UHGV virus genome: UHGV-0018110
DNA length: 24,291 nt
Source of the DNA: a virus
Strand: one strand, 5' to 3'
The translations under genes were made by a program, and so were the position numbers. Shown one piece after another: positions 4,629 to 24,291 of this stretch. The notes under the pieces are model-generated. The model was not told the DNA's origin and searched no databases. It saw only the letters and a list, made by a program, of their open reading frames with translations. How positions within the stretch are numbered: the first letter of the stretch is position 1; the number at the start of each line of letters is the position of its first letter.

Positions 4629-5108
4629 TGTGGTGTCCGCTACGCTGCAGCGCCTTTTCGCGCCATGTGATGAGCTCGGTCAGGCTCAGGGAATAGAGAT
4701 CTGATAGCGGCCAGTGGAATATCACCGCGATATCCGCCATCAGGTCATCGGTCGACAGGTCGGGCGGGAAATCTACTCCGCCGAAGCCGGTGACAAAAAA
4801 CCAATCACCTTAGCGGCCAGCGACAGCATATCGGGCAGGTTCATTGCGGTAAGCTCCTGCGCCGTAAGCGCGGGGTAGGTCATGCGTGGCAATACCTTAA
4901 TCAGCGCATCGACTTCGGACTGCGCCACCGCTGCCAGACTGACACCGCGCAGGGTACCGGCGTTGGGCTCAATCAGGGTGACTTTATCAATCGTCTGACC
5001 GGCGCGCTTAATCGGCTTGTCGAGGGTCACGACGTTCGGGTTTACGGTGTCAATTTCATTGCCAGCCGTATCAACAAATTCAGCGGTTTTACGTGGTGCT
5101 TTAGCCAT
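4621..5108 (-). CDS. E': Tail assembly chaperone E+E' (-1 programmed frameshift fusion)
   Basis: Slippery heptamer T TTT TTG on the minus strand (4794-4800) in the X XXY YYZ phase of the E frame. The -1 frame then runs 57 codons with no stop (VTGFGGVDFPPDLSTDDLMADIAVIFHWPLSDLYSLSLTELITWREKALQRSGHHNE) and ends at a TAA that overlaps the T start codon, as in the P2 E/E' arrangement. Confidence 0.7.
4773..5108 (-). CDS. E: Tail assembly chaperone E (frame-0 product)
   Basis: ORF upstream of T; start chosen at MAKAPRKT (internal Met of the track ORF 4773..5153) from gene spacing after FII; ends TAG at 4773-4775. Confidence 0.75.
   Translation of the reverse strand: MAKAPRKTAEFVDTAGNEIDTVNPNVVTLDKPIKRAGQTIDKVTLIEPNAGTLRGVSLAAVAQSEVDALIKVLPRMTYPALTAQELTAMNLPDMLSLAAKVIGFLSPASAE
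4794..4800 (-). other. -1 ribosomal frameshift slippery site TTTTTTG
   Basis: Seen directly: plus strand caaaaaa at 4794-4800 is TTTTTTG on the coding strand, in the correct phase. Confidence 0.7.
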
Positions 5109-5170
5109 GATTTTTTCTCTGCTCTGAAAGGGGATTAATAACCGGCCAGCCATGCTGACCGGTCAGGGAA

Positions 5171-5689
5171 TTACAGCCCGATTGCGCGGCGGTGCTGTTC
5201 CAGACGGTCGACGCCGTTCACCTTCTCGACCATGTTGACGGTGTCGATTTCGATGACGTCGCTACCATCAATCGTCAGGCGGTAATAGGTGCAAACGGTC
5301 GACAGTTTGGTCGAGGTGTTTTCACCCTGCTTATTTTCGCCGCCGTCGATTTCTTTATGACGGCCACGCATGACGACCTCGACCGCGATGATTTCGCCGG
5401 TGTCGTCGCGCTGGTAGGATCCAGCAAAACGCAGCGGCACAGCGTCAGCACCCGGCGCGGCGTACTGCGCCCACAGAGCCACATCAGGCAGGCCACCGAC
5501 AGACCACTCGACGGTGAGCGCATCATCGTCGAGACCGAGGTCAATCGCCGCCGCCCCATTCATACCGCCGCCGCGATAGTTTTCGAGCTTGCGGGTCAGC
5601 TTCGGCAGCGTCACGGATTCAACAACGCCCATGTAGCTCAGACCGTCGTTGAACATATTCAGATATTTGAGTTTGCGGGGTAGTGCCAT
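5171..5689 (-). CDS. FII: Tail tube protein FII
   Basis: 172-aa ORF directly downstream of the sheath gene; size and position as P2 gpFII. Confidence 0.9.
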   Translation of the reverse strand: MALPRKLKYLNMFNDGLSYMGVVESVTLPKLTRKLENYRGGGMNGAAAIDLGLDDDALTVEWSVGGLPDVALWAQYAAPGADAVPLRFAGSYQRDDTGEIIAVEVVMRGRHKEIDGGENKQGENTSTKLSTVCTYYRLTIDGSDVIEIDTVNMVEKVNGVDRLEQHRRAIGL

Positions 5690-5704
5690 GTTATTTCAGG
5701 CTCC

Positions 5705-6883
5705 TTAGCTGTTGACCGATTCGGCCAGATTCACCAGATATTTATCGGTGATACGCTGGCGCAGGGTCAGGCTTTCCAGTGGTGGAACCGGCGTATAGTC
5801 GTAGTCGATATACAGTTTCCCGGCCTTGAGGGTTTCCTTATCGTTCGATTCCTCGTCGAACCAGCATTCACCGTCCACGATGTAGCCATTTGATTTCAGC
5901 TCGCGGAATTTGGCATTAATGCCGTCGACAATGTCACGGATGAGCGATGCGGTGATGGGCTTATCGACCGCCCACATGTGCGCCTCAGCCATCGTGTCGG
6001 CCAGCACCTGCGCGGTGCGGGTGTAGTTCTCAAACAGGAAAAGCGGGTCATCAGAGCAGGTGCGGTTACCCCAGAAGCGGAAGCCATCCTTACGCACCAG
6101 TGTCGTGACCCCGGCCTCGTTGAGCAGATCAGCATCGGTGCCGGATGCCTGCAAATCCCAAAACACTGACGCACTGATGCCGGTAACACCCTGCACGCCG
6201 ACGTTAGACAGGGTTTTGTGCCAGCCGACGGTCTGGTCGATATAGGCACGCAGGCCGAGTGCGCGCGCGGTGGCGTAGGCTGTTGCGGTGGCGTTCGCGG
6301 TGGTGTCCCATGCGAGGAAATCAGGCCAGATAAGCATCAGTTCGCGCTGGCTGAAATTCTCGCGATAGGCCATCGCCTCGGAAATAGTCTTACAGCCCCA
6401 TGCACTGACATAGCCAAAGGCGCGCAGGCTGATACAGACCGACGCAAGTGCGACTGCGACCTCTTTGGTATCGAGCCCCGGCACGCCGAGAATGCGCGGC
6501 TTAACGCCGGTGACCGCTTCGGCAGTCAACAGCGCCTTGATACCGGTGTATTTACCGTTCTCATCCGTGCCGCCGATGATATTGGAAATGGTCTGCGCTT
6601 CCGCGTCTTCTCCGGTACCTTCGGCAACACGCACGACAACGGTGACGGGCTTTGACTGGTCGGCGATGGCCTGCAGGGAGGCAGACAGCGTGCCTTTTTT
6701 ACCGGCTTTCGCAATGGCGCTCTGCACATTGGTAATCAGTACCGGCTCGTTGAGGGGAAATGTCGCGGCATCCGCATCGCTGGCCGTGCAGACCATGCCG
6801 ACGATTGCAGTCGCGACCGTAGAAATAACACGCGTACCGTCATTGATTTCGATGACCTGCGTGCCGTGGTGAAAATCACTCAT
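5705..6883 (-). CDS. FI: Contractile tail sheath protein FI
   Basis: 392-aa ORF, first gene of the FI-FII-E-T-U-D block; similar to P2 gpFI from memory. Confidence 0.9.
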   Translation of the reverse strand: MSDFHHGTQVIEINDGTRVISTVATAIVGMVCTASDADAATFPLNEPVLITNVQSAIAKAGKKGTLSASLQAIADQSKPVTVVVRVAEGTGEDAEAQTISNIIGGTDENGKYTGIKALLTAEAVTGVKPRILGVPGLDTKEVAVALASVCISLRAFGYVSAWGCKTISEAMAYRENFSQRELMLIWPDFLAWDTTANATATAYATARALGLRAYIDQTVGWHKTLSNVGVQGVTGISASVFWDLQASGTDADLLNEAGVTTLVRKDGFRFWGNRTCSDDPLFLFENYTRTAQVLADTMAEAHMWAVDKPITASLIRDIVDGINAKFRELKSNGYIVDGECWFDEESNDKETLKAGKLYIDYDYTPVPPLESLTLRQRITDKYLVNLAESVNS

Positions 6884-6984
6884 CCGGTTAACTCCGTGGT
6901 TAGTGGGCGAGTGTTATTGTCCTGGCTGGTCTGGTGAGGGGCTATTTGTCGGCGATGGGTAGCGGATGGCACATAAACAAATCA

Positions 6985-7008
6985 TAAAAAAGACGGGCAT
7001 CAGCCCGC
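6985..7008 (-). terminator. Rho-independent terminator after the tail fibre assembly gene
   Basis: Minus-strand stem cgggc-tgat-gcccg (plus 6994-7007) followed by a T-run (plus-strand aaaaaa at 6985-6991). Confidence 0.55.
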
Positions 7009-7014
7009 CTCGCA

Positions 7015-7443
7015 TTATTCCGGTTGTTCCGGCCATTCAATATCTGTTGAATTGATATCTATAGCGTCCAGCTTATCAATGTAGTCCAAAACAGCATTCA
7101 ATCTTAGAGTCTCGCTCTCAGTTAGCTTTCTGCCCGCCTGCATCTTTAATTGAATAACAGCTATAGAGCTCATAGCATTATCAATTCGGTTTTGCCTGTC
7201 AGCCTCAACTATTGCAATCAATTCATCGTGTGAAGGCGGAGCCAAATCAGCCCACACAGGCAAACCCTGTGCGCTGGCCGTCCTGTATTTATCTTCGGGA
7301 ACTAAACCCATGAAGTATTTCTGAAACTCTGAATCCGTGATTTCAACAATATCATCTGGCAGTGTTCCGGCTTTCTTATACGAGTCCATAAGAACACCTG
7401 AATACGCTATATTCTCTGATGGTGAATAATAATACTTCTGCAT
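7015..7443 (-). CDS. G: Tail fibre assembly protein (gpG-like chaperone)
   Basis: ORF directly downstream of H; start set at MQKYYYSPSE (internal Met of track ORF 7015..7515) because it abuts the H stop; AT-rich like the H 3' part. Confidence 0.75.
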   Translation of the reverse strand: MQKYYYSPSENIAYSGVLMDSYKKAGTLPDDIVEITDSEFQKYFMGLVPEDKYRTASAQGLPVWADLAPPSHDELIAIVEADRQNRIDNAMSSIAVIQLKMQAGRKLTESETLRLNAVLDYIDKLDAIDINSTDIEWPEQPE

Positions 7444-7445
7444 AA

Positions 7446-8489
7446 TTAGTACCCTATAGCCAGCCAATGGACGGTAGGGGTATACCCCAAAATGCGGGAG
7501 GTGACAGAGACACATGCATTTGTGCGCGAGCCTGCTTTCCCATCACTCCCGGCGCTCATATTTGAGCGTATAAACGTATTGAATTCGTTAGCTTGCCCCT
7601 CAAAAGTAGAGCCTGCCAAAGTCATGAAATTGACCAACGCCATATTAGGGAAAGCAACCGTATAAAGAGGCTTTGTATAATGGGTGTACCATGTTACCCC
7701 CCCCACTGTTTCCGAGTTATAGTTACCGACAGCTGATAAATTCCATATTCCCCATTGAACAATTATGCCACTCGGTAAATATTGAATACCATTTGACCCT
7801 TTCGTCGCCTGAAAAAATGACATATCCGGTACTTGCCCACTTCCCGAACCTACATTTTTTTTGGCGGCATTCCCTAACCCGAGGTTTTCAAAAAGCTTAT
7901 CAATCAGCCCCGCGTCGGCTATCTCCTTGAGCGCATTAGCAATCAGGGGGTACTGTCTGTGCGGGTTAGCTGCATCAACATGCTTTTTCATCAGGTCATC
8001 AGCATAGGCTTTCACCTCGATAACCTTATCGTCAACATACTGGCGCGTTGCCAGCACGACCGACGGGTCGATTTTCAGGGTGATGGCCGACGTGCTCGAC
8101 ACAATCAGAATCATGCGAATGGTCTGCGTGCGGCCGCTTCCCTCCTGCAGTTGCGGTTTGTAGGTCTCCGGACAGTTCGCCACGGCAATCAGAATACCGT
8201 CGTCGTCATAAAGGCCAATCTCGCGGATCCAGAAACCACCTTCATTCTCGGGAATAATCTGTTCCGCGATAATCTGACTGGTATTGGCCGGGTCAACGGT
8301 CAGCAGGTTCAGCGGCGCGATGCGTTTCTGGTTAATGAGCTTCGTCTGCGCCGGGTCAGGGGTCGGCAACGTACCATTCGCATCACCGACGGCCATCTGC
8401 GTCAGGTTGAGTTTGGTACCGAGTGCCGCCGCGTTCGCCAGCCGCGCCGCGCCCTGATTGGTCAGAATGGCAAAATATTTTGCGGTCAT
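7446..8489 (-). CDS. H: Tail fibre protein H (conserved N-terminus, divergent C-terminal receptor-binding part)
   Basis: 347-aa ORF; N-terminus (AILTNQGAARLANA...MAVGD...GGFWIREIGLYDDDGILIAVAN...EGSGRTQTIRMILIVSS) resembles the P2 gpH N-terminus from memory; the C-terminal half is AT-rich and unrelated. Confidence 0.85.
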   Translation of the reverse strand: MTAKYFAILTNQGAARLANAAALGTKLNLTQMAVGDANGTLPTPDPAQTKLINQKRIAPLNLLTVDPANTSQIIAEQIIPENEGGFWIREIGLYDDDGILIAVANCPETYKPQLQEGSGRTQTIRMILIVSSTSAITLKIDPSVVLATRQYVDDKVIEVKAYADDLMKKHVDAANPHRQYPLIANALKEIADAGLIDKLFENLGLGNAAKKNVGSGSGQVPDMSFFQATKGSNGIQYLPSGIIVQWGIWNLSAVGNYNSETVGGVTWYTHYTKPLYTVAFPNMALVNFMTLAGSTFEGQANEFNTFIRSNMSAGSDGKAGSRTNACVSVTSRILGYTPTVHWLAIGY

Positions 8490-9094
8490 GCGTTCACTCT
8501 CAGATTATCAATCAAATGGATGGCCGAGGCCGGGTAATATTCACCGCCGACGACAATCTCCTCGGGGGTGTAGGGGTAAACAGTCAGCGCGTCGCCGTGA
8601 TAGCATCCCGCGCCGACATACAGTTCGCCGGTCGAGCTCAGACTGATAGCCAGCCCGGTCAGGTGGCGACTTGCCGGTTTGGCGTCTTCAATCAGTCGCT
8701 CAAGCTCCTGATACATTTCGTCAGTGATGCCGCTGTCGAGGACGCCAACAACGAGGCGGAATGTGCCTGGCTCCTCGTCGAGTTGCCACCACTCGCGCAC
8801 CTCAATCAGAAAGCCGAGCGGCTCGACGACCCGACGCAATGCGCTGATGGTGCCTTTGTGCTGATGGACGAAAAACGAGGACGCGCAGACGCTGCGCTTT
8901 GTCGCCTCCAGCCATTTCTCATCCCACCTGTCGACCGACAGCGCCCACGCCAGATACGGCAGCAGCTTTACCGGGCAGGTGCGCCAGTTCCACAGGGTGC
9001 GCAGCGGTACCGGCACGCGCTGAATCTCAGAGAGTGCAGCAGCGGCGGCAACTTCCAGCGGCGACGAGCCAACGGGTAACAGCCTGTCACTCAT
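8486..9094 (-). CDS. I: Baseplate assembly protein I
   Basis: 202-aa ORF between J and H, coupled by start/stop overlap; P2 gpI position and size. Confidence 0.85.
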   Translation of the reverse strand: MSDRLLPVGSSPLEVAAAAALSEIQRVPVPLRTLWNWRTCPVKLLPYLAWALSVDRWDEKWLEATKRSVCASSFFVHQHKGTISALRRVVEPLGFLIEVREWWQLDEEPGTFRLVVGVLDSGITDEMYQELERLIEDAKPASRHLTGLAISLSSTGELYVGAGCYHGDALTVYPYTPEEIVVGGEYYPASAIHLIDNLRVNA

Positions 9095-19799: not shown

Positions 19800-19807
19800 T
19801 CCCCCTC

Positions 19808-19832
19808 AAGCCGCCAGCATGGCGGCTTTTTC
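19808..19832 (+). terminator. Rho-independent terminator after Q
   Basis: Perfect 7-bp stem gccgcca-gca-tggcggc (19810-19826) followed by ttttt. Confidence 0.7.
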
Positions 19833-19975
19833 ATACCCCGCCACCATCACGCCTCAGATGCGCCACACGCGCACCACCACACCCGACCACCAACGAACCG
19901 ACAGCGACCACGACCGCGCCATCACGACGCGCTCAGACGATAATTTTTATTATTACGCACCACCGCTGGCGCGCA

Positions 19976-19994
19976 ATGCTTTCCCCGCCACGCC
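19976..19994 (-). other. cos site (19-nt cohesive end) of a P2/186-family phage
   Basis: The reverse complement of 19976-19994 is GGCGTGGCGGGGAAAGCAT, identical to the 186 cohesive end and two mismatches from P2 GGCGAGGCGGGGAAAGCAC as I recall them. Adjacent sequence (tgcgcgc.agcggtggtgc, cgtctgagcgcgtcgtga) also resembles the P2 left-end sequence. Confidence 0.6.
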
Positions 19995-20089
19995 TGCCCG
20001 CTTAACGGGTCGCTTTTAATGCAGGTGCATCAGGAGCCCCGAGCCGCGCCAGCGCTGGCGCTGGCTCACAAATTCTGGAATCAAAAACG

Positions 20090-20225
20090 CATGCAATTTA
20101 ATGCAAGATAATGCATTCAAATTGAGTTTATGATACTGATCGGTCAGTCATGCCTTCATTCTTAGGTTTGATATGGCACAGGCTACCTTGTAACAATTAG
20201 GGATTTTTCAAAAAGGTGACTACCC
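20090..20225 (+). promoter_or_regulatory. Putative promoter/operator region of the AT-rich three-gene operon
   Basis: AT-rich leader with three ATGCA motifs (atgcaattta atgcaagata atgcattc, 20091-20118), -10-like tatgat and taacaat candidates, and AAGGTGA about 7 nt before the ATG at 20226. Confidence 0.35.
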
Positions 20226-21284
20226 ATGGCAGGTGAAACTCAAAATATTTCAGCAATGGCGGAAAAGATATCTTCCGATTTATTTAAGTGGTTCAAGTGG
20301 GAGCTTGTTGGGGTAACCAATGAAAACTTTCAGTGTTTGAAGTCTACGCAACATAAAACAAAGTCTGGAACACACCCGACTGATGTTGTTTTTTCCTATA
20401 AGGATCCATACTTAAATCGGACGATTTTTTTAAATACAGATTTAAAAAGTTATGTAAAAGGGTCGATAACAGCAACCTCAATGCGAAACGCATTAGTCTC
20501 ATTGGCTAACTCTATTGATTGCGCAGAAGGTAGCAAGGAATGGAAGGATAGATACTCTTATCAAAGTGGCTCTTCTGAGGTTAGAGGAATGCTCTTTGTA
20601 TATAATCATGATGGTGAGTTTGACAGATCGTTCTATGATGTGTTTTATCAGTCTTATAATGCAGAAACTGATAAAACAAAACGGGGTATTAACCTTGATA
20701 ATATTCCTCTAAAACAAGGTCAGAAGATTCATATTATTGAGCCGAGAACTATAAATTATTTGCAATCAATAATTACGGACTTGTCTCAACTGAGTCACAA
20801 TCGAGAATTTCCTTTAGGTAAAAATTACCAGTTCTTTTACCCAGACCTATCACTTCATAAAGTTAGCGGGTCACCTGAAGAACACCCGGCAACAGTAGAG
20901 TTGTTAACGGGGCCTTTTTTGATAATTAAACACAACGATGTTAAACATTGTGATGAAGAAACTTTAGAGTGGAAAACAACCTATAAGCATGGTTATGTTA
21001 TTTATTACAATGGCGAGGGTAATAATGAATTAGAGTTTGTTTATATTCTTGATACGTTATCAAAATACCAACTCTTGGATGGAAATGAAAAGATAAGAAT
21101 TAGAATTGTACATCCAAGCATTTATAAAGATGTTCGCAGTATTTTTATGCGTGCTAAGGAAACATACTGTAGAGAATGGGGTTTCGATGAACATAAAAAA
21201 ACCATCATTGATGCCATTGATTTTCACCAAGTTGAATTTACAAAACCTCACTTCAGTTCTGTTGAGATTGGTTGGGAGCGATAA
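20226..21284 (+). CDS. Hypothetical protein, operon gene 1; possible PD-(D/E)xK-type nuclease motif near the N-terminus
   Basis: 352-aa ORF with good RBS and AT-rich codon usage. Residues around 50-74 read HPTDVVF...IFLNTDLKSY, a hPD...(D/E)xK-like arrangement. No family recognised. Confidence 0.7.
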   Translation: MAGETQNISAMAEKISSDLFKWFKWELVGVTNENFQCLKSTQHKTKSGTHPTDVVFSYKDPYLNRTIFLNTDLKSYVKGSITATSMRNALVSLANSIDCAEGSKEWKDRYSYQSGSSEVRGMLFVYNHDGEFDRSFYDVFYQSYNAETDKTKRGINLDNIPLKQGQKIHIIEPRTINYLQSIITDLSQLSHNREFPLGKNYQFFYPDLSLHKVSGSPEEHPATVELLTGPFLIIKHNDVKHCDEETLEWKTTYKHGYVIYYNGEGNNELEFVYILDTLSKYQLLDGNEKIRIRIVHPSIYKDVRSIFMRAKETYCREWGFDEHKKTIIDAIDFHQVEFTKPHFSSVEIGWER

Positions 21285-21286
21285 GT

Positions 21287-22411
21287 ATGAAAATCGGTTT
21301 GTATAGCGTTAATGACAAAGCTATGTTTGATGCTCTCAATCAAACAAAGGTGACTCATGAAGACATGAAAAGCCTTTTTTTCAAAAGAGGCACTATTATT
21401 TCTAAGGATACAAAACGGAAGACTTTAGCTTTGGATTTTTCGAAGAACTTCCACGGCTATTATGACTTTGAATATTTATCAGAAATTCTTGGATCTGTAG
21501 GGAGAAGAGAGAAAGTATCAATTAATATTGTCAACAGTGCAATTAGTTTAAGTGATATGGAAGTCACAATAAAATCTATATGTGAAGAATTACAAAAAGA
21601 GGGGGATGTAACAAATATCAATTACACCGAGAATGGATTTGAGGTGTCAGTAAAATATGTCAAGCTGGATTTTAAAATGAGCGAGTTTCGGCAATCCTCA
21701 TCTCGCGAGGCTAAAATACAAGTAGAGTTGAATGATGAGGGAGAGTATATTACGCGCTTCCCTCAGAATGCCAAGGCACATGAGTTTAATGAACTTTTGA
21801 TTAAAAAAATAAAAGAAACTAATAATGATGAGCCTGTAAGTCTTGAAGAGATATCGCTTGAAACGGTCAAAGATTCAAATGAACGTAGTCGTTTCTTTAA
21901 AGAACTGATCGTTAGTATGCCAAATTACAAATGTGTCGATGTGTCAGATGTTTATGTCACCCATCCAGTATTAGAGGTTAAAAAACCATCTGAATCTGAA
22001 GATGATGAAGATGACTCGGATGAGGATGATGATGCTGTAATAGACACTGGGTATCATATTTCAAAGGCATCATTGAAAGGAAGGGGTGTCCTTGAATCAC
22101 CAGAACTGGAAGAGTTATTGGGTAATGGGTTTTACATTACAAAGATAATATGGAGTTCGGTAGTCGAAGGTTTTAAAGACTCCGATAAGTATGAATTCGA
22201 AGCCCAGTTTGTGGATCCGGATAAATGTAAGCTGTTTTCTTATCTCGTTCGTGGATGTTATAAATATAAAAAAGTAAATGTGTTTACTAATCGGCAAAAT
22301 GTGGATAAGGAAAAAGAAAATGTGCTATTATTATCAATAGAAAAAACGGCTCGAGAAATCTCTAATAGAATAATATCTTTAAATACTCTCGAGGTAGTCA
22401 CTGAAAAATAA
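21287..22411 (+). CDS. Hypothetical protein, operon gene 2; contains a poly-acidic tract
   Basis: ATG 2 nt after the gene 1 stop with GGGAG upstream (the track ORF begins slightly earlier at a TTG); about 374 aa; tract SESEDDEDDSDEDDD at nt 21989-22033. No recognised motifs. Confidence 0.7.
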   Translation: MKIGLYSVNDKAMFDALNQTKVTHEDMKSLFFKRGTIISKDTKRKTLALDFSKNFHGYYDFEYLSEILGSVGRREKVSINIVNSAISLSDMEVTIKSICEELQKEGDVTNINYTENGFEVSVKYVKLDFKMSEFRQSSSREAKIQVELNDEGEYITRFPQNAKAHEFNELLIKKIKETNNDEPVSLEEISLETVKDSNERSRFFKELIVSMPNYKCVDVSDVYVTHPVLEVKKPSESEDDEDDSDEDDDAVIDTGYHISKASLKGRGVLESPELEELLGNGFYITKIIWSSVVEGFKDSDKYEFEAQFVDPDKCKLFSYLVRGCYKYKKVNVFTNRQNVDKEKENVLLLSIEKTAREISNRIISLNTLEVVTEK

Positions 22412-22422
22412 AAGGAGTTGTT

Positions 22423-23094
22423 ATGAAAACAAAATGGTTTACTGCCAACTTCCCTGCCGGTCTCGATAGGTTATACCAGGCCATCATAAACACGCCTTTT
22501 GACAGTGACAAAGGTTGGGGGTTTAGTATTCTTTCATATGAAGATAAGTATATATCTTCAAAATATATTGAAAGGGTTGAGGTAAGCGAAGTAATCATAG
22601 ACCCCTATGGTAATGAAACTGAGTTTAATCATTTCAAATATGTGCAGTTTAACTTTTGGTTTTTTAAAGCTCAAGGCGGTAACTTCATTTTAATAATTGA
22701 TTCTCCGCCTAGAAGTATCAAGGGTTTTATCTCCAATGTGATTAAGGCAACTGAATCCGATTTTAATGTTTCTTATCTTGTGATTCAAATTGATGAGTTT
22801 ATAAAATTTATCACGCCTCACTTCGAAAAGGTTCAGGTGCACAAGGCCAAATTAAAGGATTTGACTTTTAGTAAAAATACATCTGGCATTTTAGAACTTG
22901 AGTCTTCAAATGACGCGATAGATGAGATGAGAAATATTTTTAAAAATGCAAAATTCACGATTGATAAAGTTAAATTGAGTGTTAAATCTAACACTGGCAA
23001 TGAAACATTAGAAGTGAATTCCAATGGTTCTCTTAGCTTCTCAGAGGAGCTTTTTGATAAGATATTCTCTGCAGTTGAGCGTTTCACTTTCTAA
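22423..23094 (+). CDS. Hypothetical protein, operon gene 3
   Basis: 223-aa ORF with a canonical AAGGAG RBS 5 nt upstream, 11 nt after gene 2; AT-rich; followed by a terminator. No recognised motifs. Confidence 0.7.
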   Translation: MKTKWFTANFPAGLDRLYQAIINTPFDSDKGWGFSILSYEDKYISSKYIERVEVSEVIIDPYGNETEFNHFKYVQFNFWFFKAQGGNFILIIDSPPRSIKGFISNVIKATESDFNVSYLVIQIDEFIKFITPHFEKVQVHKAKLKDLTFSKNTSGILELESSNDAIDEMRNIFKNAKFTIDKVKLSVKSNTGNETLEVNSNGSLSFSEELFDKIFSAVERFTF

Positions 23095-23106
23095 GATAGA
23101 GTTGAA

Positions 23107-23142
23107 AAGCACTCTTAGTAAAATAAGGGTGCTTTTCATTTT
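23107..23142 (+). terminator. Rho-independent terminator of the three-gene operon
   Basis: Stem aagcactctta / taagggtgctt (one mismatch), loop gtaaaa, followed by ttcatttt. Confidence 0.5.
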
Positions 23143-23284
23143 AACTTTAAAAGTTTTTCGAAATCCGAAAGTGTTCGCGAGATTTGTTACCTCGTATTCA
23201 TTTTGATTAGCGAGTTTTTATCAAGGTCAATGCTCTTATAGGTATCGAAACCTGAGCCCGCATGTAATACCCGGAGCTTAAATT

Positions 23285-23467
23285 CTATTCGGCTTTATAG
23301 AAAATATCCGGGTCATCCTCAGCACTTTCACTGTTCGCTAAATCAGCAATAAGAGTGAGTGCGAGCTTAAGGTCTGACGGTTTGCAATTTGCAATCAGAG
23401 ACACCTCTGCAATGAATTGTACACAAGCCCACTTTTGCTGAGTTCGGCTGAAATGTTCGCCAACCAT
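23285..23467 (-). CDS. Small hypothetical protein downstream of a LexA box (candidate SOS-induced gene; tum/antirepressor-like position)
   Basis: 60-aa ORF with a strong SD (GGGAGGG 5 nt before ATG) and a consensus LexA box 22 nt upstream of the start codon; acidic C-terminus. No sequence identity to a known protein established. Confidence 0.4.
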   Translation of the reverse strand: MVGEHFSRTQQKWACVQFIAEVSLIANCKPSDLKLALTLIADLANSESAEDDPDIFYKAE

Positions 23468-23489
23468 GAAATCCCTCCCATAGAGTTTT

Positions 23490-23509
23490 TACTGTATGTT
23501 TGTACAGTA
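23490..23509. promoter_or_regulatory. LexA (SOS) box
   Basis: tACTGTatgtttgtACAGta: perfect CTGT-N8-ACAG palindrome with consensus-like TA flanks, in the gap between the A-like gene stop and the small ORF. Confidence 0.65.
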
Positions 23510-23583
23510 TCACGTATTGGCAAAAGATGGGAAGAAAAAAAACGAATAGGTCGATTGCCGTATGTGCATGATATGGATATGAA

Positions 23584-24291
23584 TTACTCATGTATTGGTT
23601 TTGATGCTTTAGCCATCACCGCAACACGATTAAGGATTTTCCGAGCTTTAGCCTCATGCGATGGCGCTGCGGAAAATATTTCTCCTTTGGCCGTTCCGCG
23701 TAGCCATTTGCCATCAAAACAACTTTTACCACCGGCCATCAGGTGCAGCGCTTCGCCCCGGCTGATTGTGATGCCGGTTGTCAGATGTATCTCGTCGATA
23801 GTTTTCGCTATAGCTGCGTTTTGCTCATCCGTTCCGTGGATAATTTTTCGCCGTGTTGCTGGCTTTTGCTTCCTTAGTCGGTTGGTCAACTCTCGTCTTT
23901 CACGCCGACTCAGAGGTTTTGTTAAATCCAGTATCGGTGGATCGCTTTCGCTTCCCGTACAGTTATTGACAGAACTCCGAGAGGGCGCAGGAGCGCCCTT
24001 AACGTCAACGGCCAAATCAACGGCACGCTTAGGCACAATTTTCCACTGCGTTAACCGGGTTAAAATAGGGGTACCAGCGCCGACAACAGAGTCGTAAACA
24101 CCACGGATACAGACGGTTTCCTCGCCATACTGATTAAAATCAGCGCGCGGTTCATACAGTGTGCGCACCTGCAAATCATCGCGACGGACAAACGGCCCAC
24201 CCTGCGCATTAACGTAACCAGCCCAGTCACCGGCGTCAGCGGCATCATGGACGGCGGCAAATTCAACGCTCAGACCGTGCGCGGTCTCGGT
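23584..24291 (-). CDS. A: Replication initiation protein (gpA-like), C-terminal part; ORF continues beyond the window edge
   Basis: Open minus-strand frame from the window edge to the stop at 23584 (236 codons, no stop); assigned mainly by position next to the cos-proximal accessory slot, as in P2/186; not confirmed by sequence recall. Confidence 0.45.
   Translation of the reverse strand, partial: TETAHGLSVEFAAVHDAADAGDWAGYVNAQGGPFVRRDDLQVRTLYEPRADFNQYGEETVCIRGVYDSVVGAGTPILTRLTQWKIVPKRAVDLAVDVKGAPAPSRSSVNNCTGSESDPPILDLTKPLSRRERRELTNRLRKQKPATRRKIIHGTDEQNAAIAKTIDEIHLTTGITISRGEALHLMAGGKSCFDGKWLRGTAKGEIFSAAPSHEAKARKILNRVAVMAKASKPIHE

Follow-up and report, generated by a model that had tools for sequence, protein, structure and literature searches.

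Results

Genes and features of the locus

We examined one strand of a virus genome (UHGV-0018110), and we refer to the whole 24,291-nucleotide stretch analysed as the window. It is identical (100%) to DNA of E. coli MRSN346647 (NZ_CP018206.1). Three coupled genes occupy positions 20226–23094 on the plus strand and encode proteins of 352, 374 and 223 amino acids, designated here Hp1, Hp2 and Hp3. The features of the region are as follows.

20059–23325: low-GC cargo insert, flanked by the cos-proximal backbone on one side and tumA/gene A on the other (GC 0.351 versus 0.565 in the backbone; limits from DNA homology)
20059–20225, plus strand: upstream non-coding region with a candidate promoter and the Hp1 ribosome-binding site AAGGTG
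20226–21284, plus strand: Hp1, 352 amino acids
21287–22411, plus strand: Hp2, 374 amino acids from ATG
22423–23094, plus strand: Hp3, 223 amino acids
23103–23138, plus strand: intrinsic terminator of the operon, with a 15-bp stem and a 6-nt loop, followed by TTTTAACTTT
23285–23467, minus strand: tumA homologue, 90% identical to PSP3 TumA
23490–23509: perfect LexA box adjoining tumA

A sequence-only reading had described an AT-rich, plus-strand operon of three genes of these sizes, and the open reading frame coordinates and base composition agreed with it. The intergenic gaps were 2 nt (Hp1/Hp2) and 11 nt (Hp2/Hp3). GC content was 0.347 for the operon (Hp1 0.352, Hp2 0.347, Hp3 0.339), compared to 0.565 for the left P2-like backbone, where the lowest value among operon-length windows was at least 0.526. 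The strong ribosome-binding sites that had been claimed were found as Shine–Dalgarno-like sequences before every start: AAGGTG for Hp1, GGGAG for Hp2 and AAGGAG for Hp3. An alternative upstream TTG start at 21272 would extend Hp2 to 379 amino acids; the RefSeq entry starts Hp2 at the ATG and labels all three genes hypothetical. The terminator also matched the earlier description; it begins 9 nt past the Hp3 stop and was the top-ranked terminator-like site of the region. The promoter attributed to the operon was not established. The best candidate sigma-70 site (20168–20197; TTGATA-18-AACAAT with TG) had 9 of 12 matches, a weak consensus, and the scan upstream of Hp1 gave 10 matches versus 12.1 expected from shuffles, showing no enrichment.

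RefSeq context, Pfam matches in the backbone and homology of cos showed that the cassette belongs to a P2/186/PSP3-like prophage, where it separates the cos region from replication gene A; this confirms that it lies in the cos-proximal slot where P2 carries old and tin. DNA homology to P2-like phages on the flanks of the cargo was confined to 19800–20058 and 23326–23600. The interval first assigned to the operon, 19995–23583, does contain the cargo but overshoots it, taking in backbone up to about 20058 and again from about 23326. The 3' part of that interval, with tumA and the LexA box, is backbone and lies outside the cargo. At this locus tumB/dinI is missing, and tumA and the LexA box are kept. 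The position between portal/cos and gene A and a composition unlike the backbone (GC 0.35 versus 0.565) support the view that the operon is horizontally acquired cargo of the P2 cos-proximal hotspot.

The trio belongs to the 3HP family

All three proteins matched PADLOC profiles that followed the gene order. Hp1 matched Hp1 PDLC03004 (E = 3.4e-65; residues 1–345 against 1–325 of the 333 profile positions), Hp2 matched Hp2 PDLC03005 over nearly its full length (E = 6e-36), and Hp3 matched Hp3 PDLC03006 (E = 4.9e-8; residues 2–202 against 3–200 of 227). PHROGs also recognised all three. Rousset et al. (2022) cloned a trio named "hp+hp+hp" (plasmid pFR109, from E. coli E1114) from the same P2 hotspot, and among eight phages it protected against P1 only (PMC9122126); its DefenseFinder family name is Rst_3HP (PMC9090908). 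BLASTP against the E1114 proteins gave full-length alignments for Hp1 (35% identity, E = 5e-70), Hp2 (31%, E = 4e-38) and Hp3 (20%, E = 1e-10). The genes are adjacent, closely spaced and in the same orientation, as in 3HP.

We conclude that the interval almost certainly holds a complete, apparently intact copy of 3HP (Rst_3HP) as a self-contained Hp1-Hp2-Hp3 operon, to judge from these alignments. Homology to the tested E1114 trio supports its reading as a putative anti-phage system, and low GC, the hotspot and that same homology bear out the proposal that it is horizontally acquired defence cargo. The further proposal that the system was novel fails, because all three proteins match PADLOC Hp1–Hp3 and the tested pFR109 trio. 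The operon is already known, as a member of the catalogued and tested 3HP family of P2-like prophages.

A survey of co-occurrence, which the sequence-only reading had suggested, found the trio intact, in the same order and on the same strand, in all 76 informative loci, with an Hp3-family gene directly after Hp2 in every one. The phyla represented included Proteobacteria, Acidobacteria and Verrucomicrobia, among others. Neighbouring genes varied (integrases, phage genes, Gabija, type I RM, Abi), and the trio was also found in filamentous phages. Other E. coli prophages had it in this P2 slot too, as did a P2-like phage of Klebsiella in which 3HP coexists with DinI. Nine further complete E. coli genomes had a variant of the present subclade, at 76% DNA identity. 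In a Vibrio phage genome, the trio was annotated as Rst_3HP by its depositors.

Hp1 is a predicted nuclease

The first gene had been said to show no recognisable motif. Alignment of 83 Hp1 sequences instead revealed an invariant constellation of PD-(D/E)XK type: E4, H50-P51-x-D53 and D72-L-K74. Residues H43, H50, P51, D53, D72, L73, K74, S75 and N127 were 100% conserved, H128 was present in 80 of the 83 sequences and D129 in at least 95%, and E4 was found in 76 of the 76 sequences having a residue at that alignment column. The predicted active-site residues are E4, H50, D53, D72 and K74.

GAPS4 (GapS4a plus GapS4b) is a defence system reportedly described by Mahata et al. Hp1 matched the NCBIfam GapS4a model (NF047933) over residues 6–214 with 41.6 bits, against a family cut-off of 270, and hhalign of Hp1 with GapS4a^RiKo gave 93.9% (E = 1.6e-7). 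Hp1 homologues carry PF26115. In the alignment, D53 of Hp1 corresponds to D49 of GAPS4^RiKo, and a D-to-A change at this aspartate abolishes GAPS4 defence (preprint 10.1101/2025.09.07.674715). Homology and motif conservation thus point to Hp1 as a PD-(D/E)XK nuclease homologous to GapS4a. Because 41.6 bits is far below the cut-off of 270 and the motif differs (HPxD...DxK in Hp1, HGxD...SxK in GapS4a), we place Hp1 in a sister family, outside GapS4a proper.

Hp2 and Hp3 are predicted RdgC-fold proteins

Structure models (pLDDT 81.8 for Hp2 and 91.6 for Hp3) predicted an RdgC fold for both partners. In the Hp2 model, an RdgC-like alpha/beta body is combined with a helical domain at the N-terminus and a disordered acidic linker (residues 230–254); this acidic segment is conserved. 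Hp3 appears to be a second RdgC/Iml3/CENP-L-fold protein, without a counterpart in GAPS4. None of the three family profiles matched a PDB sequence, and the three proteins had no Pfam match with models that lacked PF26115 (homologues carrying PF26115 were equally unmatched).

A broad Hp2 profile (76 sequences, multiple phyla) matched GapS4b^MAVP-R with 24.5 bits, compared to maxima of 7.6 bits in 1000 shuffles and 3.3 in 1220 unrelated open reading frames; hhalign gave 80%, versus at most 0.7% for shuffled templates. This signal came from one of two GapS4b sequences; GapS4b^RiKo alone scored a non-significant 7.8 bits. A narrow, Enterobacterales-only Hp2 profile was not significant against GapS4b (hhalign, one or two sequences). 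The NCBIfam GapS4b model matched neither the three window proteins nor 43 Hp2 homologues, and the Hp3 profile did not match GapS4b. A tblastn search of plasmids with GapS4b returned just two copies, nearly identical to each other and insufficient for deepening the profile. We infer that Hp2, with its RdgC-like fold, may be a remote homologue of GapS4b.

Neither Hp2 nor Hp3 has a catalytic constellation, and the near lack of invariant residues in both is consistent with scaffold or sensor roles. In the present variant their pI values are acidic to neutral (4.98 and 5.51), unlike those of a simple DNA binder. Paralogy of the two proteins is unproven, because hhalign between them gave only 1% (not significant); a short KA[SK]LKG strand is all that they have in common.

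Discussion

Proposed mechanism and its alternatives

The explanation that we favour overall, and consider rather probable, combines 3HP identity with a GAPS4-like mechanism of nuclease and clamp. In GAPS4, the trigger is linear DNA or DNA breaks, host and phage DNA are both degraded, leading to cell suicide, and neither gene alone protects; their products assemble into a stable heterotetramer (preprint 10.1101/2025.09.07.674715). For 3HP, Hp1 would be the sole enzyme, a PD-(D/E)XK DNase, and Hp2 and Hp3 together would form a DNA-binding clamp or horseshoe, either as a heterodimer as in Iml3-Chl4 or as a ring of Hp2 to which Hp3 is bound. Hp1 may dock onto the N-terminal helical domain of Hp2. 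When the clamp or sensor met linear or aberrant DNA from an infecting phage, Hp1 would be licensed to degrade DNA, and infection would probably end abortively, with degradation of host DNA as well, in line with reports on GAPS4. The conserved acidic linker of Hp2 could, speculatively, act as an autoinhibitory DNA mimic. Such licensing of Hp1 by an Hp2/Hp3 clamp is a tentative proposal, in which complex, stoichiometry, DNA binding and trigger are all deduced. Equally tentative, and with somewhat less than an even chance of being right, is the broader proposal that 3HP is a three-component sister of GAPS4, in which a heteromeric RdgC-fold clamp controls the Hp1 nuclease and fires on linear or broken DNA. 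The literature searched contained no mechanistic paper on 3HP and none tying it to RdgC or GAPS4.

The reported 3HP phenotype speaks against a GAPS4-like mode: of eight phages only P1 was affected, a narrow range compared with the broad one of GAPS4. Such a narrow phenotype would fit 3HP acting as a direct, non-abortive restriction factor, in which the RdgC-like pair would direct Hp1 exclusively against phage DNA and leave the host unharmed. Possible targets would be the terminally redundant ends of P1, recombination or replication intermediates, or a phage-specific DNA structure or nucleoprotein intermediate; RdgC-family proteins do act on recombination and replication-fork intermediates (PMC11077077). 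Moreover, the carriers are temperate phages, which must not kill their own lysogen needlessly. Nevertheless, GAPS4 is the closest characterised relative and destroys host DNA along with that of the phage, and the three proteins bear no sign of self/non-self discrimination, with neither a methylase nor a reader domain. We regard direct restriction as unlikely, though the most credible of the alternatives.

Tight coupling and strict co-inheritance of the genes, the conserved acidic disordered segment of Hp2 and an enzymatic look in one component only would also suit a module of toxin-antitoxin type. Here a constitutively toxic Hp1 nuclease would be restrained by Hp2 and/or Hp3, perhaps via the linker as DNA mimic, and released when infection stops host gene expression or degrades a labile partner. 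None of the components looks like a known antitoxin or a target of proteases, however, and the GAPS4 proteins form a stable complex in which neither gene alone suffices. The confidently predicted RdgC-like folds of both partners favour a DNA-facing role as well, and a toxin-antitoxin module seems improbable.

Still less probable, with only a slim chance, is that defence is not the primary role and that the cassette is an accessory module of the prophage for modulating RecA, SOS or recombination. The cassette does take the PSP3-type place of the RecA-filament binder DinI/TumB, adjoining the SOS-controlled tumA; tumB/dinI is absent where tumA and its LexA box persist, and RdgC lowers RecA activities (PMC11077077). 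But a homologous trio confers phage resistance from a plasmid, outside any prophage; the trio also occurs in filamentous phages, next to integrases and adjoining other defence genes, well away from any tum/dinI context; and the Klebsiella P2-like phage has 3HP plus DinI. Finally, a previously unknown defence or superinfection-exclusion system, the view originally taken, could draw on the hypothetical labels in RefSeq and the empty Pfam search, but it is refuted by the PADLOC and pFR109 matches, by recognition of all three proteins in PADLOC and PHROGs, and by the validation of the family in 2022 and its inclusion in DefenseFinder, and we give it next to no credence.

Significance

As an object the operon is ordinary, being another instance of a catalogued system in its discovery hotspot that standard defence finders label. 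Its remaining value is mechanistic: a catalytic subunit and active-site residues can be assigned, and both partners are given, by modelling, a DNA-encircling RdgC fold. Homology to GAPS4 would tie 3HP to a reported trigger (linear DNA or breaks) and outcome (indiscriminate DNA degradation). If true, the GAPS4-like proposal would be the first mechanism for 3HP, and would bring 3HP, GAPS4 and lambda RexA together as defence sensors that share the DNA-binding fold of RdgC/Iml3-Chl4. It also predicts side-effects in lysogens carrying 3HP, namely sensitivity to quinolones or DNase toxins.

Comparison with known systems

The usual occupants of the slot, P2 old/tin and 186/PSP3 tum, share with the cassette the locus between cos and gene A, and old/tin also share its role as swappable anti-phage cargo. 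P2 Old is an OLD-family ATPase-nuclease, whereas the cassette proteins lack homology to Old or Tin: no homologue of Old (OLD-family ATPase-TOPRIM nuclease) or Tin was found with PADLOC, Pfam and NCBIfam, whose matches were to Hp1–3 and GapS4a only. In this prophage tumA is a separate backbone gene on the strand opposite to the cassette. We therefore rejected old, tin and tum as the identity of the cassette, there being no homology and tumA being a separate neighbour.

The E1114 3HP system resembles the cassette in gene sizes, gene order, full-length homology of each protein and its place in the cos-proximal P2 hotspot, and both keep the Hp1 motif HP[ST]D...NTDLKSY and the Hp2 acidic linker. 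They differ in that the cassette represents a divergent subclade (35/31/20% identity) known here from sequence alone.

GAPS4 consists of two genes that are sometimes fused; 3HP adds Hp3 as a third that is always present (76 of 76 loci) and falls outside the two-gene or fused GAPS4 architecture. Hp1 is homologous to GapS4a, and its THPxD aligns with the GapS4a THGxD that holds the essential Asp; at the second nuclease motif, Hp1 has a canonical D-x-K where GapS4a has S-x-K. The C-terminal region of Hp1 (about 240–352) is extra relative to GapS4a and unaligned. Hp2, a putative remote homologue of GapS4b, aligns collinearly with it over about 250–260 residues (hmmsearch and hhalign default alignment). 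GapS4b has been modelled as a ring, and Hp2 is predicted to share the ring-forming RdgC fold.

With RdgC, the E. coli recombination-associated protein (PDB 2OWL), Hp2 appears to share fold but not sequence, Pfam RdgC and the PDB being unmatched, and Hp2 has an additional N-terminal helical domain and the acidic linker. RdgC inhibits RecA, and proteins with the RdgC/RexA/Iml3-Chl4 fold bind DNA as homodimers or heterodimers (PMC11077077). The match to lambda RexA, the sensor of RexAB exclusion (PDB 8TWQ), was weaker than that to RdgC or Iml3. DNA binding by RexA is uncorrelated with exclusion (PMC11077077), and its partner RexB is a membrane protein, not a nuclease such as Hp1 is predicted to be.

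Organization and limits of the cassette

We examined the operon at 20226–23094, in which a reading of the sequence alone had seen three coupled plus-strand genes. The ORF list and RefSeq both supported these genes, and the features in and beside the operon were as follows:

20226–21284, plus strand, Hp1 gene, 352 aa
21287–22411, plus strand, Hp2 gene, 374 aa from the ATG, as in RefSeq
22423–23094, plus strand, Hp3 gene, 223 aa
23285–23467, minus strand, TumA homologue, 60 aa, 90% identical to PSP3 TumA
23490–23509, perfect LexA box TACTGTATGTTTGTACAGTA, upstream of the tumA homologue

The Hp1 stop and Hp2 ATG were separated by 2 nt, and the Hp2 stop and Hp3 ATG by 11 nt. An in-frame TTG at 21272 would lengthen Hp2 to 379 aa; RefSeq prefers the ATG. 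The expected ribosome-binding sites were found as SD-like AAGGTG, GGGAG and AAGGAG ahead of the Hp1, Hp2 and Hp3 starts, respectively. A terminator belonging to the operon, likewise anticipated, lay 9 nt past the Hp3 stop at 23103–23138 (15-bp stem and T-run) and was the top terminator-like candidate of the region. A dedicated promoter was not established: the best sigma-70 match (20168–20197) scored 9/12, and the region held no more matches than shuffled sequence. The AT-richness noted by eye held on counting, with an operon GC of 0.347 versus 0.565 in the 20 kb to the left; every backbone window of equal length had a GC of at least 0.526. The operon structure showed that the three Hp proteins are co-translated.

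The window was 100% identical to a prophage in E. coli MRSN346647 (NZ_CP018206.1). Its backbone was P2-like, with GpD, tape measure, tail fibre, tail-fibre assembly protein, P2-family capsid, GPO scaffold, terminase and portal to one side of the cassette and replication endonuclease A, CII, Fil and CI to the other. DNA homology to P2/186/PSP3-like phages covered 19800–20058, which is the cos region (a cohesive end is annotated there in Erwinia phage EtG), and resumed from 23326, so we placed the cargo at about 20059–23325. The interval flagged by the sequence-only reading, 19995–23583, does hold this cargo; its 3' end is backbone, with the TumA gene and the LexA box, the sole perfect one in the window (chance expectation 0.01). 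In PSP3, tumA is followed by tumB/dinI, gp37 and gp38, whereas here these genes were absent and the cassette stood in their place.

A second low-GC patch at 7001–8500 (GC 0.44–0.46 versus about 0.57) took in the portion of the tail-fibre gene (7446–8489, minus strand) that encodes the C-terminus, together with the tail-fibre assembly gene (7015–7515, minus strand); it probably represents a host-range module that has been exchanged. In the GC-rich cos region, lying between portal terminator and cassette, the plus-strand stretch 19819–20019 contained a RefSeq CDS (19858–20019) for a 53-aa "hypothetical protein", WP_162780151.1. Because it had no Pfam match and overlapped DNA conserved as non-coding cos in related phages, it is probably a spurious call.

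Identity of the cassette

PADLOC-DB matched all three proteins, in gene order and near full length (Hp1, E 3.4e-65; Hp2, 6e-36; Hp3, 4.9e-8), which answered the defence-finder check suggested by the sequence-only reading. In PHROGs, each protein fell in one function-unknown family (E 3e-156, 3e-152 and 7e-84 for Hp1, Hp2 and Hp3). Exactly this P2-type hotspot was described by Rousset et al. 2022 (PMC9122126), whose Table S2A gives the protein sequences of the pFR109 "hp + hp + hp" trio from E. coli E1114. Full-length BLASTP of the window proteins against that trio gave identities of 35% for Hp1 (E 5e-70), 31% for Hp2 (4e-38) and 20% for Hp3 (1e-10). DefenseFinder names the system Rst_3HP (here 3HP), a family that is mostly prophage-encoded (PMC9090908), and a Vibrio phage record was already annotated Rst_3HP__Hp1/2/3. 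Every feature by which 3HP membership could be tested was present in the cassette.

We concluded that the cassette is an already known system, which standard defence finders would label, and that it is a divergent 3HP subclade whose anti-phage role here is assigned by homology. Low GC, hotspot position and homology to the pFR109 trio bore out the earlier idea of horizontally acquired anti-phage cargo. The supposed novelty of the system did not survive, since PADLOC-DB, DefenseFinder and the Rousset trio already cover the operon. What may be new is a mechanistic assignment for 3HP: a 2024 survey listed Rst_3HP among systems without a recognisable domain, and the literature searched contained nothing linking 3HP to RdgC or GAPS4.

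Distribution of the trio

A scan with the Hp1 alignment, at one genome per species, yielded 80 loci from Gamma-, Beta-, Alpha-, Delta- and Epsilonproteobacteria, Acidobacteria, Verrucomicrobia, Cyanobacteria, Bacteroidota and candidate phyla; four loci obtained earlier brought the set to 84. HMMs of the three families were run against six-frame ORFs of these loci. Hp1, Hp2 and Hp3 were adjacent, co-oriented and in the same order in 76 of 84. At each of the remaining eight, the contig broke off inside Hp1 or Hp2 or immediately behind one of them, and no two-gene variant was found among the 84. The nearest flanking genes were mixed (integrases, phage GPA and portal, S24 repressors, UmuC-like, NERD, GajB, type I specificity subunits, AbiL-like, resolvases), a heterogeneity which argues that the trio is a self-contained mobile cassette.

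The trio occupied the same slot in a Klebsiella P2-like phage and lay between integrase and repressor in the Vibrio phage. Pseudomonas phage 99-2 (OR621024.1), a 13.5-kb filamentous phage (Tubulavirales, Pf-like), carried a complete trio at 4995–7892, at its accessory end and adjoining repressor and excisionase, with Hp1 annotated as "nuclease related protein"; it is noteworthy for an inovirus to carry defence genes. A further nine complete genomes of E. coli had a variant at 76% DNA identity.

In E. coli 401651 (NZ_CM129040.1; locus L086, 7132–8360), the 76%-identity variant had an IS3-family transposase directly 3' of Hp3, at the position of tumA in the window and immediately next to where replication gene A ends. 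A frameshift or stop interrupted Hp1 and/or Hp2, leaving two ORFs, in Aureimonas sp. Leaf454 (L064, 6950–9125), in Photorhabdus noenieputensis (L047, 7996–9109) and at locus L008 (1667–2770). These split copies are apparently decaying systems or, in L008, which is a MAG, assembly errors.

Hp1 as a putative nuclease

Nine residues (H43, H50, P51, D53, D72, L73, K74, S75 and N127) were 100% conserved in 83 Hp1 sequences. H128 was kept in 80 of the 83 and D129 in at least 95%, and E4 was present in all 76 sequences with a residue at that alignment column. Judged from these residues, the E...HPxD...DxK array of Hp1 is a PD-(D/E)XK constellation. The NCBIfam GapS4a model gave a sub-threshold match (41.6 bits, residues 6–214). 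Precomputed tables placed PF26115, worded in UniRef as "GAPS4 PD-(D/E)XK nuclease domain", on every Hp1 homologue; the Pfam copy used here did not contain PF26115, and a Pfam-only check would wrongly imply that Hp1 is domainless.

We rebuilt the GapS4a^RiKo sequence from the AlphaFold3 file deposited with a preprint on GAPS4 (10.1101/2025.09.07.674715). The hhalign comparison with the Hp1 profile gave 93.9% probability (E 1.6e-7, 207 columns) and set THPxD53 of Hp1 opposite THGID49 of GapS4a. D49A in RiKo and D59A in MAVP-R abolish GAPS4 defence (10.1101/2025.09.07.674715). Because of the GapS4a homology and the motif conservation, Hp1 is very probably an active DNase.

Predicted folds of Hp2 and Hp3

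Searches of Pfam, NCBIfam and PDB gave no relatives of Hp2 or Hp3 by sequence. AlphaFold2 models built from the family alignments were confident (Hp2, pLDDT 81.8, pTM 0.71; Hp3, pLDDT 91.6, pTM 0.84). The structure-based search that had been proposed gave independent evidence: with Foldseek, the top named matches of Hp2 among viral models were phage "Recombination-associated protein RdgC" (E 7e-6 to 1e-4, probability 1.00). On these models and two search programs, Hp2 and Hp3 are predicted to adopt the RdgC fold. RdgC is a ring-shaped dimer with a basic pore around dsDNA, and RexA, Iml3 and Chl4 have the same fold; Iml3–Chl4 forms a heterodimer through an extended antiparallel sheet and contacts DNA (PMC11077077).

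To the RdgC fold the Hp2 model added an N-terminal four-helix domain (residues about 10–69) and a disordered acidic linker (230–254, 13 D/E in 20 residues), which recurred across the family (median 10 D/E per 20 residues). Almost no residues were invariant in Hp2 and Hp3, which fits scaffold or sensor roles better than enzymes.

No significant similarity between Hp2 and Hp3 was detected by hhalign. The sole segment it aligned (E 0.05) paired Hp2 255–265 (22049–22081) with Hp3 138–147 (22834–22863); the short strand motif conserved there (H-I-S-K-A-S-L-K-G in Hp2, V-H-K-A-K-L-K-D in Hp3) may descend from a common ancestor or may be an interface strand that the two share.

Relation to GAPS4 and proposed mechanism

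GAPS4 is an a2b2 complex in which GapS4a docks on the helical globular domains of GapS4b; it senses linear DNA or DNA breaks and degrades host and phage DNA (10.1101/2025.09.07.674715). We rebuilt GapS4b sequences from both deposited models. Their comparison with Hp2 gave a mixed picture. GapS4b was missed by an Hp2 profile confined to Enterobacterales. A 76-sequence multi-phylum profile matched GapS4b^MAVP-R collinearly in hmmsearch (24.5 bits, HMM 18–269, protein 17–282), and hhalign aligned it with GapS4b over 253 columns (Hp2 2–271, GapS4b 3–285; E 1.4e-5). GapS4b^RiKo alone against Hp2 was not significant (7.8 bits), and no similarity was found between Hp3 and GapS4b.

Controls for the Hp2–GapS4b match
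hmmsearch, 1000 GapS4b shuffles: best 7.6 bits; real 24.5 bits
hmmsearch, 1220 unrelated ORFs: best 3.3 bits; real 24.5 bits
hhalign, 30 column-shuffled templates: best 0.7%, score 20.4; real 80.1%, score 46.0

We read 3HP and GAPS4 as sister systems, in which Hp1 would correspond to GapS4a and Hp2 to GapS4b. Hp1 would very likely be the nuclease, with D53, D72 and K74 as its active site. Hp2 and Hp3 would form a DNA-binding clamp, either as a heterodimer like Iml3–Chl4 or as a ring of Hp2 to which Hp3 is added, and Hp1 would dock on the helical domain of Hp2. By analogy with GAPS4, the system would be triggered by linear or broken DNA and would end in abortive DNA degradation; more speculatively, the acidic linker might autoinhibit. 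Against this scheme count the overall acidity of Hp2 (pI 4.98) and Hp3 (pI 5.51) in the window's variant, the failure of DNA binding and exclusion to correlate for RexA (PMC11077077), and the narrowness of the sole published 3HP phenotype, which is P1 only (PMC9122126).

Comparison with known systems

With old/tin, the cassette has the locus alone in common. It shares the predicted fold of the RdgC family but falls outside the family by sequence. It differs from GAPS4 proper in scoring under the NCBIfam cut-off, in having DxK rather than SxK, and in having three genes rather than two. On our reading, the extra component of 3HP would be a second, obligatory subunit with the RdgC fold. We tentatively suggest, at somewhat less than an even chance, that 3HP is a relative of GAPS4 with three components, arranged around a clamp of the RdgC type.
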